NCBI GenBank assembly: GCA_965279375.1
Contig: OZ257156.1
Coordinates: forward strand, 2,048,001 to 2,112,000
DNA length: 64,000 nucleotides
DNA from: Gemmatimonas sp.
Lineage (GTDB): Bacteria > Gemmatimonadota > Gemmatimonadetes > Gemmatimonadales > Gemmatimonadaceae
Direction of reading: 5' to 3'
Of this stretch, positions 36,433 to 42,925 are shown piece after piece. Both the position numbers and the translations under genes were made by a program. Numbering within the stretch: the stretch's first letter is position 1; each line of letters starts with the position of its first letter. The notes under the pieces were generated by a model that saw only the letters and a program-made list of their open reading frames with translations, was not told where the DNA came from and searched no databases.

Positions 36433-37125
36433 CTACTCGAGCCCGATCTGTTTGCGAATCGCCGCCGATGGGCCCTCGAACTTCTGCAACGGTACGTTGC
36501 CGATGTAGCCGATGTCCTTCCAGCCTTGTGGCGTGGTGTAGAACGCCGTGGCGGTCTGGTCGCGAATGGTGTCGAAGAACTGCGCCGCGAACGTGTAGCC
36601 GGGCTTGGCGTTGGGCAGGTAGCAGATGTCGTCGCAGATCGCGGCGCGCTGTGCGTCGGTGGCCAGATGAAAGCGCTTGCCGAATCGTGTCTGCGATTCG
36701 CGATCGATCCAGACCAGTCCGCCACGCACGCGCGCCAGCGACGCATCGCCACCCGGACGGCTGGCCCATTCGTTGATGTAGTCGGGCGCGCCGACGGTCG
36801 AAGCGGCCGGGCTCTTGGCGTCGGCCGGAATGATCATGTCGCACAACGCAGCGAGCGTGACCAGCTCGCGCGCCATCAGTCGCTTGGGCCACGTCACTTT
36901 CGCGCCGATGAGGATCGGATCGCTCGGCGTCCCACGCGGACCCTTGAGTGGCACCGGATCGAGCACGGGCAGCGGTGCACGCGCAGGCGAAATCACCGGA
37001 GCTGATTCTGCGGCCGCGCTGTTCGGGAGCATCGGTACGACGGCCGCAGCGGCCATCGCCTTGAGGGCATCGCGGCGCGACGTGTTGCCGATGCCGTTCG
37101 TGTTGTCGTTTGAATGCTGCGACAT
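36433..37125 (-). CDS. Gluconate 2-dehydrogenase subunit 3-family protein (Tat-exported)
   Basis: SRRDALK twin-arginine motif; LCDMIIP, FF..IRD....FYT...G...IGY.GN; TGATG coupling to the GMC gene. Confidence 0.9.
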   Translation of the reverse strand: MSQHSNDNTNGIGNTSRRDALKAMAAAAVVPMLPNSAAAESAPVISPARAPLPVLDPVPLKGPRGTPSDPILIGAKVTWPKRLMARELVTLAALCDMIIPADAKSPAASTVGAPDYINEWASRPGGDASLARVRGGLVWIDRESQTRFGKRFHLATDAQRAAICDDICYLPNAKPGYTFAAQFFDTIRDQTATAFYTTPQGWKDIGYIGNVPLQKFEGPSAAIRKQIGLE

Positions 37126-38915
37126 CAGAGGTTCCCCCGCTTCATTTCGGCGACGAGGTGATCGCAGCTGCGCCACGCGAGTGCGAGAATGGAGAGCGTC
37201 GGGTTCTTGTCGGCGTTGCTGGTGAAGGCTGCGCCGTCGGTGACGAAGAGGTTGGGCACTTCCCACGTCTGTCCGTGCGCGTTGAGCACCGACGTCTTGG
37301 GATCTGCACCCATGCGTACCGTGCCGACTTCATGGATGATCTGGCCACCCTTGGCGATCACCTTGTTGCCGTCGGTCTGCACGGTGCCCTGCACCTTGCC
37401 GCCCATCTTGTCCACGATCTCGGCGAACGTCTTCACCATGTGTGCCGCCTGATCGATCTCGTGCGACGACCACTTCCAGTGGAACTTGAGCACGGGGATG
37501 CCCCACTGATCCACCACATCCGGATCGAGCTCGCAGTACGAGTCTTCGTTGGGAATCATCTCGCCGCGCCCGTCGAAGTACATGAACGAGCCGTAGTAGC
37601 GACGCGCCTCTTCCTTGAACTTCTTGCCGTACGCGCCCTTGGTGTAGCTCTCGAGGCCGCCCATGAATCCAGCGCCCGGCATGCCACGTCCGCCACCGAA
37701 CTCGATGTGGTAGCCGCGTGCGAACGACATCTTGTTGGCCGCCTGATCCTTGTAGAGCCACCACGGCATGTACATGTGAATGCCGGCCGTGCCGTCTTCG
37801 TTGATCGGCGGAAGCCCTTCGAGGCGCGGGATCTGCGCCGAGAGGCCAGCGCCGACCGTGTCCATGAGATACTTGCCGACGACGCCACTGCCGTTGGCGA
37901 TGCCGTTGGGAAACTGCGTGCTCTTGGAGTTGAGCATGATGCGCGACGTTTCGGCGGCACTCGCCGCGAGCACGACCACCTTGGCGGTCACGTGGTGCTC
38001 GATGCGCGTGAGCTTGTCGATGTAGTGCACGCCACTCGCCTTGCCCTTGGCGTCCACCGTCACTTCGCGCACCATCGCGTCGGTGATCAGCGTGACGTTG
38101 CCCGTGGCCATCGCGGGCGGCATTAACACCGTGCTGCTCTGGAAGTTCGCCTTGATGGAGCAACCGCGGCCGCAATCAGTGGCGTAGAAGCACGCCTGAC
38201 GCTCGAGCATGCTCTGGCGCAGCACGCGCTGCGCGAGGGCGTTGCCCGGATGCAGCTTGGCCGGCAACCGCGCGGCGTCCTGCTTGGCCGTCAGTACAGC
38301 GCGGTGCGCGGGAATGACCGGAATGTTGAGCGGATCGCACGCCTGCTTGGTGAGCAGCTCGTACGTGCGCGGTGCGGGGGCGGGCTGCAGCACGCCCGGC
38401 GACGAACGCGGCGTGTTCTCGAGATCGTCGTCACCGCCGTACACACCGATGAGCAGTTCCGTCTTGTCGTAGTACGGGGCGAGCTCTTCGTACGTCAGCG
38501 GCCAGTCCGCGCCCAAACCGTCGCGGCTCTTGGGCTTGAAGTCGTACGGACCCATGCGGAGCGAAATGCGTCCCCAGTGGTTCGTGCGTCCGCCGACCAT
38601 GCGTGAGCGCCACCATTGGAAATCGGTGCCCGGCGCATTCGTGTACGGCTCACCCGGTACACGCCACCCGCCATCCACGGTGGCGTCGTAGAAGCCGAAC
38701 GGCTTGTCCGCGTTCCCCGAGCCGCGCAACGGCGCGTCCTTGGGGGTCTGGAACATCGGCGTCTCGGTGATGGGGTCGTAGTTACGCCCTGCTTCCAGCA
38801 CGCAGACCTTGAGTCCCTGCACGCTGAGTTGATAGGCGGCCATGCCGCCACCGGCACCAGAGCCAACCACGATGACGTCGTACTGCGTGTCGGTCTTGGA
38901 GCGACGCAAGGACAC
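37125..38915 (-). CDS. GMC-family flavoprotein oxidoreductase (sugar/glycoside dehydrogenase large subunit)
   Basis: VVGSGAGG FAD motif, GGRTNHWG, C...CGRGC, HEVGTVRMG, NPTLSILAL. Confidence 0.93.
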   Translation of the reverse strand: MSLRRSKTDTQYDVIVVGSGAGGGMAAYQLSVQGLKVCVLEAGRNYDPITETPMFQTPKDAPLRGSGNADKPFGFYDATVDGGWRVPGEPYTNAPGTDFQWWRSRMVGGRTNHWGRISLRMGPYDFKPKSRDGLGADWPLTYEELAPYYDKTELLIGVYGGDDDLENTPRSSPGVLQPAPAPRTYELLTKQACDPLNIPVIPAHRAVLTAKQDAARLPAKLHPGNALAQRVLRQSMLERQACFYATDCGRGCSIKANFQSSTVLMPPAMATGNVTLITDAMVREVTVDAKGKASGVHYIDKLTRIEHHVTAKVVVLAASAAETSRIMLNSKSTQFPNGIANGSGVVGKYLMDTVGAGLSAQIPRLEGLPPINEDGTAGIHMYMPWWLYKDQAANKMSFARGYHIEFGGGRGMPGAGFMGGLESYTKGAYGKKFKEEARRYYGSFMYFDGRGEMIPNEDSYCELDPDVVDQWGIPVLKFHWKWSSHEIDQAAHMVKTFAEIVDKMGGKVQGTVQTDGNKVIAKGGQIIHEVGTVRMGADPKTSVLNAHGQTWEVPNLFVTDGAAFTSNADKNPTLSILALAWRSCDHLVAEMKRGNL

Positions 38916-39161: not shown

Positions 39162-40427
39162 ATGTCGCCTCGCGTTCTGCTCCACGTGTGCAGCGCACTG
39201 CTGCTGCCGCTGCCGCTGTTTGCCCAGCATCCTGTCGAAAAGCACGAGGCCAAGCCGGTTGCCACGGCAAGCCACGCTGCATCACACGACACCGGCTCGT
39301 CGTGCACGACCCTGTCGACGGTGGGCACGTCGCACTTCGTCTTTCCGGAGACTGCCGGTCCAGGATTCGCCTCCTACATCGATTCGTCCGTTCGCATCGA
39401 AGGCGGACAGCGCGTCATGATCGGGTGCCGCTCGTTCGTGGGCCCTTTTGCGTCGCTCGACGGATCGCTGGGGCCGATCGCGATCGGCGATGGCTCGGAC
39501 ATTCAGGACAACGTGCTCATTTCCGGGCGCATGGTCGTGCTGGGGGACAACGTCATCGTGGCGCATGGCGCGACGATCGTGGGGCCGGTCTCCATCGGCG
39601 CGCCCAACGGCAAGCCGGCGTTCGTCGGCTTCAACTCCTACATCGACGGCGCGACGATCGAGCCGGATGCGATGGTCACGCACCTCGTGCGCGTCTCGCC
39701 GGGCATCACGATCCACAGTGGCATGAAGGTGCAGCCGGGCAAGTGGATTCAGACGCAGGCCGAAGCAGACGATCCGTCACTCGGCAAGGTCGTGAAGCTG
39801 AATGAAGCCGACCGCGAGTTCATGGCCGGCGTGCTGCACGTCAACGTTGCGTTCGCGGCCGGCTACACGGACCTCTTTCACTCGGCGCCGGCGCAGGTCA
39901 GCGGTGCGGGGCGCGATCCGGGGCACAGTGACTTCAATCAAGACGCCGACATGCCGACGTTCGCGGGCAAGGCCGAATCGCATCCGGAGTTCGACAACCG
40001 CATCATCGGCGGCGTGGAGATGGCCGATTCCTACGCGAATCTGATCAAGAAGATGGGGCACAACATCGCGATTCGCGCCGACGAGGGTGAGCACTTCCAC
40101 TTCGGACTCGTCGGGCTGCTGCAGGATCGCGTCACGTTCCATGCACTCGAGCACTGCGACATCGACATCGGCAACAACAACACGTTTGGCTATCACGTGG
40201 TGGTGCACGGCGGCCCGGACGACGCGAGCGAGCCACATGCAGTCACGCGTACGGAAGACGACGTGACGGTACGCGATTGGGCCGTGCTCTTCCGCTCAAA
40301 GGTGGGGAAGGGAAGCACGATCGGCGTGAAGGCGTATGTGGATGGCTCACATCTCGCGCCGGGCACCATTGTCCCCGATCGCGCGATCATGATCAAGGAC
40401 AAGATCGTCGGCTACGTCGAGTGGTAG
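39162..40427 (+). CDS. Secreted gamma-class carbonic anhydrase-like protein with two tandem left-handed beta-helix domains
   Basis: Signal peptide; domain 1 IQDNV..., VAHGA, QAEAD, VNVAFAAGY; domain 2 IRADEG, QDRVTFHALE, VVHG, FRSKVG; these match Methanosarcina Cam motifs. Confidence 0.85.
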   Translation: MSPRVLLHVCSALLLPLPLFAQHPVEKHEAKPVATASHAASHDTGSSCTTLSTVGTSHFVFPETAGPGFASYIDSSVRIEGGQRVMIGCRSFVGPFASLDGSLGPIAIGDGSDIQDNVLISGRMVVLGDNVIVAHGATIVGPVSIGAPNGKPAFVGFNSYIDGATIEPDAMVTHLVRVSPGITIHSGMKVQPGKWIQTQAEADDPSLGKVVKLNEADREFMAGVLHVNVAFAAGYTDLFHSAPAQVSGAGRDPGHSDFNQDADMPTFAGKAESHPEFDNRIIGGVEMADSYANLIKKMGHNIAIRADEGEHFHFGLVGLLQDRVTFHALEHCDIDIGNNNTFGYHVVVHGGPDDASEPHAVTRTEDDVTVRDWAVLFRSKVGKGSTIGVKAYVDGSHLAPGTIVPDRAIMIKDKIVGYVEW

Positions 40428-40462
40428 CTGAGAGGTAGCCGAGCGTTAGGTCACGGAGCGCC

Positions 40463-42925
40463 TCAGGGCGCTCCGATGGCCTGGCGAAGTGAAGCGGCCC
40501 ATTCGGGCGGTGCCACGAACAGCTGTTCAGGAAACTTCTTGTAGCGCGCGATCTCGTTGAAGATTTCGCCTTCGGTGTATGCATTGAGGCCGACACCGGC
40601 GAGATACTGCAACCGCAGGTTACGGTCGGTGTTGATCGCCGAGCCTTTGAGCCATTCCTGCAAGTCGCGTCCGCTGCCCGCGTAGGTGGAGAAGAGATCG
40701 AGCGGTGACGAGAAGCCCGACTCGACGAGCGAGCCGCCAACCTTCATGTAGCCGGCGTCCTGAAAGCGACGCTCCATCGCGTTGATGTCGATGCGCGACG
40801 GACCATCCTGCCCCAGCAACACGATGTCGTAGCCGCGCCCGTCGATGTTGTTGGCCCAGACGGTGCCCTCGGGGAAGACCTCAAAGAACGTGGCGAGTTC
40901 GCTGCGCACCGCATCGAGCGTGCTTTCGTAGAGCGGTACCCACTGTGTGACCACACCGCCCGGCTTGAGATGCGCCTTGACCGCGTTGAAGTACTCGCGC
41001 GTGTAGAGTGAGGCCGCGCCCTTTACCCACGGATTGATCGGGTCCGACGTGATCACGTCGAACTGTTCGTCGCTGGTGAGCACGAAGCTGCGCGCATCGT
41101 CGAAGTAGATCTGCGTGCGCGGGTCGGAGACGACGTTGTTGTTCTCCTTGGTGAACCACGTCGACACCACCTGCGGAATGAGCGGTTCGATCTCGCAGAT
41201 GACCAGTCGCTTGACCGACGGATACGGCAGGAACGAACCGGCCGTGACACCCGCACCAAAGCCCACCACCAGCACCGACTGCGGATTGGGGTGCACGAGC
41301 GCCGGCAGATGCGCGAGCATCTTCTGCAGGCGCATGTCCTGCGGCAGGCTGGAGGCTTCGACCTTGCCGCTCACGTGGAATTGCGTGGCGCCGCTGGCGA
41401 GGACCTTGGTGACGGCGACGGAGCTGTTCATTCCTTCGCCGATGTAAAGCATCTCCGTCTTGCCCAGCCACGTGACCGCGTAGCGGCCGTGCGCGACGAG
41501 CGCGCCTGGAAGCGTGGGGAGCGTGACGATGCCAAGCAATGCGAGGACGGGCGCGAGCACCAACGCGATGCTCGTGCGCGGTCTCTCCGAGATCAGCACC
41601 AACAGCGCGGCCGCTGCCGCGCCAGCGATGAGCACGCGCTGCGCATCCTGTGTGCCCAACATCGGGATCAACACCAGACTGCAGAGGACCGCACCCGCAA
41701 TCGAGCCGATGGTGTTGGCTGCGTACACACCGCCAACGAGACGCGCGGCATCCTGTCCCGGACGCGCCAGCGCGGCGAGTGCGAACGGAAAGCTCGCGCC
41801 CCACAGCAGCGCCGCCGGAAATACCGCCAATGCACACCGCGCAAGATCGAGCTGCAGTGCGAACCACGCACTCGGCGCCAGCGACGGGTTGATGGGCCAG
41901 TTGGGAAGCGCGCGATAGATCACCCACGCGGCCCACGCGATGGCCAGCACGAGCAACAGCTGACACCACGCGAGCGCACGACGCGGACTCTCCACGATGC
42001 GCGCGAGCCACGACGCCACCGCACTGCCGATGCCCAACCCCGCGAGGAACACCGCGAGGATCATCGAGAAGGTGTAGACAGACGCGCCGAAGGTGAGTGA
42101 CAGCAATCGCGTCCACACGACTTCGGCGCCGAGCGCGCACGCGCCGGAGAGCCCGATGGCGAGATAGACCTCGCGAGCGCCAGCGATCGGTGCAGCCGAC
42201 GTCGCGCCTTGCGCCGACGCGTCATTGGCCGTGACCGCAGCAGCGTTGTCGCCGGACGCACGCGCCGGTGTGCGGAGAGAAATCACCCAAGCGATCGCAG
42301 CCACGAGCACGTTGAGTGCGGCAGCCACGTACGTCGCGTAGCCCTGGTCGTGGATGCGCAGCAGATAGAAGCCGGCCAGCACACTGCCGATGACCGCGCC
42401 CGCAATGTTGCCGCCGTAGAAGAAGCCGAGCCACGAGATGCCGCGTTCGCTCGATTCCACCCAGCGTGCGATGGCGGGAAGCGTCGCACCCATCAGCACG
42501 GTGGGCGGCAGCAGGCACAGCGCCGCCACCACGCCGCGCAGCGCGAGCGCCGCCGCGCCGTGGCCGACTGCGGGCGAGTACAGCTTCCCGACCAGCGGAA
42601 TCGCGAACAGTTCCAACACGCCGATGACGCCGATCGACAGCTCCAGCATGGCGTACAGCTGCAGCGGGTGCCGGGAGCGTGACGCGAGTCGTGGTAGCGC
42701 GAGACTGCCGATGCACATCCCGCCCATATAGACGGCGAGCAGCACGCCGAGCGAGATCGCTGACGAACCGATCACCAGCTCGAGGAGTTGAAACCACACG
42801 ACCTCGTAGATGAGCGCGCACACGCCGCTGCCGACGAACAGGAGCAACAGGAACGGAAGCAGCTTGGCGGACGCCAGATCGAGCGCGGCGTCGGCAGTGG
42901 AGGCGCGTAAGGTGCGGCTGGTCAT
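40463..42925 (-). CDS. Fused MFS-like membrane domain / spermidine synthase-like protein
   Basis: SG..ALIYEVVW duplicated TM block; VLVVGFGAGVT, CEIEP, DDAR, FDVITSDP, LYTREYF. Confidence 0.9.
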   Translation of the reverse strand: MTSRTLRASTADAALDLASAKLLPFLLLLFVGSGVCALIYEVVWFQLLELVIGSSAISLGVLLAVYMGGMCIGSLALPRLASRSRHPLQLYAMLELSIGVIGVLELFAIPLVGKLYSPAVGHGAAALALRGVVAALCLLPPTVLMGATLPAIARWVESSERGISWLGFFYGGNIAGAVIGSVLAGFYLLRIHDQGYATYVAAALNVLVAAIAWVISLRTPARASGDNAAAVTANDASAQGATSAAPIAGAREVYLAIGLSGACALGAEVVWTRLLSLTFGASVYTFSMILAVFLAGLGIGSAVASWLARIVESPRRALAWCQLLLVLAIAWAAWVIYRALPNWPINPSLAPSAWFALQLDLARCALAVFPAALLWGASFPFALAALARPGQDAARLVGGVYAANTIGSIAGAVLCSLVLIPMLGTQDAQRVLIAGAAAAALLVLISERPRTSIALVLAPVLALLGIVTLPTLPGALVAHGRYAVTWLGKTEMLYIGEGMNSSVAVTKVLASGATQFHVSGKVEASSLPQDMRLQKMLAHLPALVHPNPQSVLVVGFGAGVTAGSFLPYPSVKRLVICEIEPLIPQVVSTWFTKENNNVVSDPRTQIYFDDARSFVLTSDEQFDVITSDPINPWVKGAASLYTREYFNAVKAHLKPGGVVTQWVPLYESTLDAVRSELATFFEVFPEGTVWANNIDGRGYDIVLLGQDGPSRIDINAMERRFQDAGYMKVGGSLVESGFSSPLDLFSTYAGSGRDLQEWLKGSAINTDRNLRLQYLAGVGLNAYTEGEIFNEIARYKKFPEQLFVAPPEWAASLRQAIGAP

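Follow-up and report, generated by a model that had tools for sequence, protein, structure and literature searches.

In Methanosarcina thermophila, the γ-carbonic anhydrase Cam forms a homotrimer in which each chain has a single domain and which holds three active sites (PMC4519908). The roles of its residues have been described (PMC4519908, PMC7199487, PMC11721427, PMC12635333). In the literature covered, γ-carbonic anhydrases are obligate trimers. Because the site is interfacial and each mutation hits both neighbouring subunits, the roles of the two subunit faces are hard to separate. In Arabidopsis complex I, the site is built from His130, Asn99, Gln101, Asp102 and Tyr207 of one subunit and from His107, His135 and Arg86 of the other (PMC8290278).

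Here, we report a gene from a 64,000-nucleotide stretch of DNA (the whole stretch that was analysed is called the window below). Its 421-residue product is a Cam-class subunit without the N-terminal arm, fused to a second subunit without the C-terminal helix. On our preferred reading, the two Cam-class β-helices, each bearing half a site, probably pack in the way that two subunits of the Cam trimer do, and would build one metal site for the hydration of CO2 outside the cytoplasm.

The gene and its two-domain product

The gene occupies positions 39162..40427 of the forward strand, an open reading frame that translates into 421 amino acids (P0001), and encodes a two-domain Cam/CcmM-class γ-carbonic-anhydrase-like protein. 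Its start methionine is common to 104 of the 107 homologues that have a residue in that column, and its nearest named relatives are Gemmatimonadota proteins of up to 81% identity. The gene stands alone at its locus, between a divergent GMC oxidoreductase gene and a convergent gene for an MFS/spermidine-synthase fusion. The convergent gene (40463-42925, reverse strand) encodes an 820-residue fusion of two MFS-like membrane parts and a spermidine-synthase domain (NF037959, 107.5 bits; cut-off 40), and on the divergent side (36433-38915, reverse strand) the GMC oxidoreductase is followed by a Tat-exported gluconate-2-dehydrogenase-subunit-3-like gene. Between the two convergent genes, a hairpin at 40445..40485 (no strand assigned; −35.6 kcal/mol, z −4.12, equalled in stability by 0 of 200 shuffles) is likely a transcription terminator; it is not among the calls of a U-tail scan. 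No σ70 promoter match was found for the two-domain gene, no RNA holder is listed at the locus, and the adjoining genes give no functional hint either at the window locus or across its clade, in which neighbours vary.

The same genome holds three β-carbonic anhydrase matches, no α-type match and two single-domain γ-type genes. Given the three β-type matches, the two-domain gene should not be needed for basic CO2 supply. One of the β-type genes (L095, G000:C1:4815071-4815991) has an RR-containing, signal-peptide-like start, so that a second exported carbonic anhydrase may exist in this genome. A close paralogue able to serve as a third subunit was not found in the genome.

The two-domain protein itself is likely exported. 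By their pattern, residues 1-21 (39162..39224, forward strand) are a likely Sec signal peptide with cleavage after PLFA. The N-terminal hydrophobic stretch has a KD value of 2.52, a hydrophobic start recurs in 79 of 93 close homologues, compared with such a stretch in 368 of the 1860 internal windows that served as controls, and A21 is kept in 93 of 105 homologues. A low-confidence linker that ends in Cys48 follows (39225..39305, forward strand; pLDDT below 50 over residues 14-45). Cys48 and Cys89 (39426-39428) are both present in 74 and both absent from 27 of 110 sequences, with nine discordant; exported proteins with a disulfide should show such co-occurrence, and a Cys48-Cys89 disulfide is likely.

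The AlphaFold monomer model, computed with 93 sequences, has a pLDDT of 90.6 and a pTM of 0.86. Its top fold matches are Cam and CcmM, with matched ranges that lie mainly in domain 1. This domain consists of a left-handed β-helix (39315..39761, forward strand) and Cam-type C-terminal helices (39756..39884, forward strand), the long one spanning residues 215-241 in the model; it thus has the β-helix and antiparallel C-terminal helix of the Cam/CcmM class, and it superposes on the Cam fold 1qrl with a Z of 23.2 and an rmsd of 1.4 Å over 163 residues. When domain 1 is aligned to Cam chains, Q115, D116, H135 (39564-39566) and N228 (39843-39845, within the motif VLHVNVAFAAGY) correspond to Gln75, Asp76, His117 and Asn202, and the lost positions of Arg59, His81 and His122 hold D100, S121 and V140. 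The side that is kept, that of His117, also includes F154 and F157. At the position of Cam Asn73, the window protein carries Asp113 (60 of the 75 genome loci described below have Asn), and at that of Tyr200 it carries His226.

Domain 2 opens with an arm (39900..39992, forward strand) homologous to the β1-β2 arm of Cam. What looks like a linker, residues 247-277, is the Cam N-terminal arm, with F258 as the Trp19 equivalent: in the basal member P0218, the arm aligns both with that of Cam (Phe on Trp19) and with that of P0001 (F258). Among the 75 genome loci, F258 is found in 73 and P265 in all. The left-handed β-helix that follows (39993..40394, forward strand) keeps the His81/His122 side, with R305, D307, E308, H327 (40140-40142), E330, H349 (40206-40208) and F377, and aligns to CcmM via IRADEG and HALE. 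In an alignment with a single-domain Cam-class protein, Y344 is matched to His117, H345 to Gln118 and H349 to His122. A phmmer register that placed H359 on His122 was rejected, as H359 is kept in just 58 of 119 homologues among the matches listed. A β-hairpin with a conserved VEW end and the stop codon (40383..40427, forward strand) replaces the C-terminal helix; in the AlphaFold model, strands 408-411 and 414-418 close domain 2, and the helix is absent. The last residue, W421, is present in 75/75 genome loci and in 42 of the 55 triad-bearing representatives. With the chain order β-helix, helices, arm, β-helix, pieces of two neighbouring subunits would line one site.

The earlier note on this DNA had read much of this from the letters alone. 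Its motifs are all present: in domain 1 QD (115-116), VAHGATIVGP (H135) and the helix motif with N228, and in domain 2 IRADEG (R305/D307/E308), QD (321-322), HALE (H327/E330), GYH (Y344/H345) and VHG (H349). The Cam alignments agree with its statement that domain 1 has retained, of the three histidines, just the His117 equivalent together with QD and the Asn202 helix, having lost RxDE, His81 and His122; the alignment and the model likewise agree with Tyr at the His117 position and a missing C-terminal helix in domain 2. The retention of IRADEG, HALE and VHG in domain 2 also stands, but its QD does not hold up as a kept catalytic feature: Q321, the Gln75 equivalent there, is not conserved, with Gln in 75 of 396 pooled sequences. 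In three Chloroflexota loci (L064, L071 and L077, from Thermoflexus and an uncultured member), the His117 position of domain 2 carries a His too, without Gln75; overall, position 344 is His in 3 of 75 genome loci and 9 of 396 pooled sequences.

Conservation, covariation and origin of the family

Homologue searches returned 411 and 603 proteins at E ≤ 0.001, of which the best 120 of each were listed. A genome search gave 285 stretches; 80 were kept, and conservation was counted on 75 loci, with 19 loci left out of this set as partial, single-domain or own-genome copies. The search patterns for the genome loci included RADE, HALE and VxHVN, which inflates those columns and leaves Q115, D116, H135 and H349 unaffected. 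A library that had been clustered at 50% identity gave 192 representatives at E ≤ 1e-30, with the best 150 listed. A pooled set of 484 sequences was reduced to 396 after gappy and identical rows were dropped; P0231 and P0237 were excluded from it.

Record names place the family in Gemmatimonadota, Planctomycetota, Actinomycetota, cyanobacteria, Bacteroidota, Chloroflexota, Acidobacteriota and Proteobacteria. Databases label these hundreds of proteins from many phyla as 'acetyltransferase', 'hypothetical' or generic carbonic anhydrase/acetyltransferase-like. For two loci, L013 and L076, the record names (Kuenenia, Klebsiella) mismatch the nearest relatives of the proteins, which possibly come from mislabelled or mixed bins. 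The spread is patchy: a full-length match occurs in two of 300 other genomes of the phylum, both of the same genus (2/13; six candidates per genome scored), and six other matches among the 300 are single-domain Cam-class proteins. Loci L088-L093, from another taxonomic family of the same order, encode Cam-class proteins of a single domain that have the full catalytic set and His-rich tails.

In the pooled set, H135 is present in 364, H327 in 372 and H349 in 364 of 396 sequences. The three histidines do not come together in one domain; they are complete per chain in 363 of 396. Stray His residues occupy the His81 position of domain 1 in three sequences, its His122 position in none and the His117 position of domain 2 in nine. 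With 411 homologues at E ≤ 0.001 and the same three histidines throughout most of the pooled set, the split is not a matter of chance. It also extends past the histidines. The Gln75, Asp76 and Asn202 equivalents are kept on domain 1 alone (Q115 372, D116 391 and N228 371 of 396), and the Arg59, Asp61, Glu62 and Glu84 equivalents, together with the Trp19 arm, on domain 2 alone (R305 390, D307 395, E308 375 and E330 333). The full catalytic and bridge set of Arg59, Asp61, Glu62, Gln75, Asp76, Glu84, Asn202 and the Trp19 arm is therefore found once per chain, a residue pattern that permits one predicted site per chain only. The survey of homologues that the earlier note had proposed hence recovers its reciprocal pattern and supports, at the level of sequence, a division of the site across the family that reaches beyond three residues. 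The two subunits at the Arabidopsis complex I site share out their residues in a like manner (PMC8290278).

Among the best 150 of the 192 representatives, 84 are two-domain proteins in which each domain is almost complete: 55 carry the triad, 20 carry no His, eight H327 alone and one H349 alone. Within the 55 triad-bearing representatives listed, Q115 is kept in 52, D116 in 54, N228 in 54, E330 in 40 and Q321 in at most two, and R305, D307 and E308 are each kept in 55/55. None of the 84 two-domain representatives among the matches listed has H135 without H349; one sequence of the pooled set has H135 and H327 without H349. The losses of His map to one clade of 27 representatives (support 1.0), to P0146 and partly to P0095, and the joint loss thus corresponds to about two independent events. 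Many members of the His-less clade (P0167-P0230) begin with a leader of the type 'RR..E.LE.R.LLS', which we take to be planctomycete-specific. In the tree, the window protein groups with triad-bearing members and not with this clade. Outside the clade, the catalytic residues hardly vary even where identity falls to about 28%. Twenty-eight pooled sequences lack both H135 and H349, and of these D116 is kept in 26, R305 in 24 and D307 in all 28; the equivalents of these three residues form the inter-subunit bridge of Cam (PMC12635333). The 27 representatives of the His-less clade have likewise lost H135 and H349 and kept the inter-domain salt bridge.

Conservation of the faces was compared in 55 sequences, with positions set by the hexapeptide register and the three histidines excluded. 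Domain 1 scores 0.74 on the His117 side and 0.42 on the His81/122 side, and domain 2 scores 0.47 on the former and 0.88 on the latter, against baselines of 0.54 and 0.52. Gaussian covariation was computed on a shallow alignment (Neff 174-207). The leading cross-domain couplings at Neff 207 include H226-D257 (rank 24) and K194-E420 (rank 26), as well as G156/N158-V347, V227-L329, N117-T325 and T173-Y392. Pairs that join the His117 side of domain 1 to the His81/122 side of domain 2 make up 21 of the top 50 couplings with all sequences and 12 of the top 50 with triad-bearing sequences, where 1.9 are expected. This face test is supportive but not blind, since the face classes were defined after the coupling list was known.

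The domain tree places 22/22 domain 1 copies in one clade (87) and 22/22 domain 2 copies in another (100), and the two-domain design therefore arose once in the family. It is domain 1 and not domain 2 that branches with the single-domain proteins of the Cam class (96), and for this reason the tree fits two origins: the protein could have arisen by duplication or by fusion of two already diverged paralogues. Of the note's proposal of duplication followed by reciprocal loss, the reciprocal split is thus backed by family conservation, and duplication becomes one of two options. Compared directly by BLASTP, the two domains share a match of just 23 residues (E 8e-4), the repeat being visible through outside relatives. 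Basal members, which divide the histidines in the same way, hold traces of a whole subunit; P0236, for example, has a full IRADEG in its domain 1. Two chains, P0231 (824 aa) and P0237 (828 aa), carry three intact Cam-class repeats each and are, by sequence, likely single-chain trimers; as natural proteins, they indicate that the helix-to-arm link is tolerated. P0237 is circularly permuted, with its Asn202 helix first.

The module also occurs in fusions. P0214 (1084 aa) joins it to HAMP, MCPsignal and a below-cut-off 4HB_MCP_1 domain with all three histidines kept, which makes it a candidate CO2/bicarbonate-linked receptor, and in P0238 it is fused to 4HB_MCP_1. In P0089, P0112, P0141 and P0144, the module is preceded by DUF4214, FG-GAP, Ig and copper-amine-oxidase N-terminal domains.

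Proposed reaction, competing readings and the third trimer position

In the proposed mechanism, the two β-helices would pack in parallel after export, as do two Cam subunits. Domain 1 would supply His135 (His117), Gln115/Asp116 (Gln75/Asp76) and, on its C-terminal helix, Asn228 (Asn202); domain 2 would supply His327/His349 (His81/His122), Arg305/Asp307/Glu308 (Arg59/Asp61/Glu62), Glu330 (Glu84) and the arm with Phe258 (Trp19). H135, H327 and H349 would converge to hold the metal, presumably Zn or Fe, which would activate a water molecule. The orientation of CO2 and bicarbonate would fall to Q115 and N228, and the movement of the proton to E308 and E330, with E330, the Glu84 equivalent, as the shuttle. 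The enzyme would then serve the local balance of CO2/bicarbonate and pH in the cell envelope.

The best-surviving alternative, which we nevertheless consider unlikely, accepts the split metal site and assigns it a main reaction other than fast CO2 hydration, either another hydrolysis or the binding of bicarbonate/CO2 for sensing. PaaY-type relatives suggest hydrolysis substrates such as COS, an ester or a thioester. The fusions to chemoreceptor domains (P0214, P0238) and the replacement of Glu330 in 15 of the 55 triad-bearing representatives among the matches listed point the same way. Many γ-carbonic anhydrases are nearly inactive (PMC7199487, PMC11721427, PMC12635333), and roughly half of those studied show no measurable activity (PMC7199487). 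However, the window protein has the complete Cam set of Arg59, Asp61, Glu62, Gln75, Glu84, Asn202 and the Trp19 arm, and a halophilic γ-carbonic anhydrase gained 17-fold in activity when Glu62, Gln75 and Asn202 were installed (PMC7199487). Its top NCBIfam matches are also CcmM and Cam-type carbonic anhydrase, above PaaY and CaiE.

A further question is what occupies the position of the third subunit, as this seat of the trimer is likely empty. In 41 of the 48 loci L037-L084, the two-domain gene adjoins one that encodes a roughly 160-residue exported protein (e.g. L055:4294-4773) and that lies mostly directly downstream and sometimes upstream; of the seven misses, two have fewer than 300 bases downstream and one is from the close clade. 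In the reverse search, 46 of 50 partner loci (L097-L146) hold the two-domain gene, and two of the four misses end at a contig edge. The partner gene is found in 0 of the 34 loci L005-L036, L086 and L087, several of which are short, and it was not found in the window's genome (99.95% complete). A hydrophobic start is seen in 91 of the 97 partner proteins compared, and a lipobox-like motif in 62. The partner model (pLDDT 91.2) shows a weak likeness to fibronectin type III (FN3) domains (Z 7.4-8.7; Atlas compared too). There is no common Pfam match (no family for the first member, and five weak matches each in a single member) and no PDB sequence match.

The partner-less loci carry instead a ladder of R323, H345 and W373 (28, 31 and 28 of 34), whereas among 40 partner-bearing loci H345 is found in four and W373 in fewer than five; since the two groups of loci are largely clades, this counts as one contrast and not as many. 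On this pattern, the third seat may be covered by the Arg323/His345/Trp373 ladder in the window's clade and by the adjoining FN3-like lipoprotein, a putative partner, in most other phyla. More speculatively, and on balance doubtfully, the family may represent an active 'two-seat' γ-carbonic anhydrase without threefold symmetry, with one chain and one site, in which seat 3 is closed by a membrane-tethering FN3-like lipoprotein or an aromatic ladder, the module, thanks to its compact single-chain form, having been reused as a CO2/bicarbonate sensor of chemoreceptors and as a metal-less surface pseudo-enzyme.

The ladder could also be a patch for self-association, which bears on a second and still less probable reading: that the site forms in trans, where domain 1 of one chain meets domain 2 of a second chain, either in a swapped dimer or in a ring of four barrels, with the oligomer as the working unit. 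Conservation and covariation are blind to whether a contact lies within or between chains, and are compatible with a site that could form either way. Two repeats per chain misfit threefold symmetry, and four-barrel assemblies of left-handed β-helices are known, namely (ApN)4 and (ApN)3:CM (PMC12929058). Against this, the single-chain model is confident over both domains, and the couplings expected of a closed ring, from the His117 side of domain 2 to the His81/122 side of domain 1, are not enriched, with two (all sequences) and one (triad-bearing) of the top 50 against 1.2 expected.

We regard it as very improbable that the protein is a non-catalytic structural or adhesive β-helix with leftover old residues. 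The 27-representative clade did lose its His while keeping the fold and the Asp116/Arg305/Asp307 bridge, and fusions to FG-GAP, Ig and DUF4214 surface domains fit such a role, but the near-invariance of the catalytic residues outside that clade and the place of the window protein among triad-bearing members argue against it. Little credence at all can be given to ordinary homotrimeric sites in domain 2, with the GYH histidine His345 in place of His117 and domain 1 as a non-catalytic scaffold. This was favoured at first for the near-invariance of H345 among the closest proteins (118 of 119 close homologues among the matches listed), and His at the true His117 position of domain 2, as in the Chloroflexota loci, lends it some support; yet H345 drops to 35 of 75 genome loci, 174 of 396 pooled sequences and 22 of the 55 triad-bearing representatives listed, it aligns with Gln118, domain 2 lacks Gln75 and the Asn202 helix, and domain 1 would have no reason to keep H135, Q115 and N228 or to lose them jointly with the His of domain 2. 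His345 was rejected as third ligand, and the refuting case that the earlier note had set for its split site, domain 2 using the GYH histidine, fails.

Comparison with known systems

The CamH-type proteins YrdA, PaaY and CaiE have one short domain that lacks the Cam arm, Glu62/Glu84 and Asn202. They were rejected as the class of the window protein, which has the arm, Glu308, Glu330 and Asn228 and scores 45.9 of 319.6 bits against PaaY; in the domain tree, neither of its domains branches with the YrdA- and PaaY-like proteins of the same genome. Hexapeptide acyltransferases (LpxA/LpxD/GlmU) were likewise rejected, with models at or below 26 bits and a fold Z of at most 17 against 23 for γ-carbonic anhydrases. 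A putative acetyltransferase of Desulfovibrio desulfuricans G20 (PDB 3C8V) superposes with residues 257-431 of its 453 on domain 1 (Z 18.9, rmsd 1.7 Å, 144 residues); just the one domain aligns, and 3C8V is absent from the best 60 sequence matches to the two-domain family profile. In the literature covered, from which subscription journals are largely missing, we found no description of a two-domain split-site γ-carbonic anhydrase.

Such a protein would matter in several respects. A natural single chain with one site would make the roles of the two faces directly testable. It is putatively a secretable and possibly monomeric Cam-type enzyme with the full catalytic set, which is of interest because most studied γ-carbonic anhydrases are barely active. 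It also defines a broad family, accompanied by an uncharacterised putative partner lipoprotein.

Cam itself (1QRF, 1THJ, 3OTM) and the γ-carbonic anhydrase domain of CcmM (3KWC) share with the two-domain protein the β-helix, the short and long C-terminal helices, the arm and a single full complement of metal and catalytic residues, which the two-domain protein holds per chain. The difference from Cam is that one chain has two unequal domains and one residue set, domain 1 being without the arm and domain 2 without the helix. Scores stay far below the family cut-offs, at 59.3 of 380 bits for NF040597 (carb_anhyd) and 61.4 of 550 bits for NF053794 (CcmM). With such scores and no domain that has all three histidines, the protein would work like Cam, yet is not a member of the Cam family as defined.

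The plant complex I assembly of γCA1, γCA2 and γCAL is alike in having a single full-His interface, split likewise between two subunits (PMC8290278). It differs in being a trimer of three separate chains bound to a respiratory complex, with N-terminal amphipathic-helix anchors, whereas ours is one bacterial chain with a signal-peptide-like start. Both site-forming γ-carbonic anhydrase subunits of the plant complex have conserved active-site residues, and the available sections of PMC8290278 do not describe a reciprocal trimming of arm and helix. The CcmM-CcmN (ApN) hetero-trimer and hetero-tetramer (7D6C) are alike in combining unlike β-helices in one assembly, with non-threefold rings (PMC12929058), and differ in their separate chains and scaffolding role; a split catalytic site is not described in the sections available of that paper. 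The chemistry proposed here is thus known in kind, and the single-site heterotrimers of complex I and the mixed β-helix rings of CcmM-CcmN were known already.
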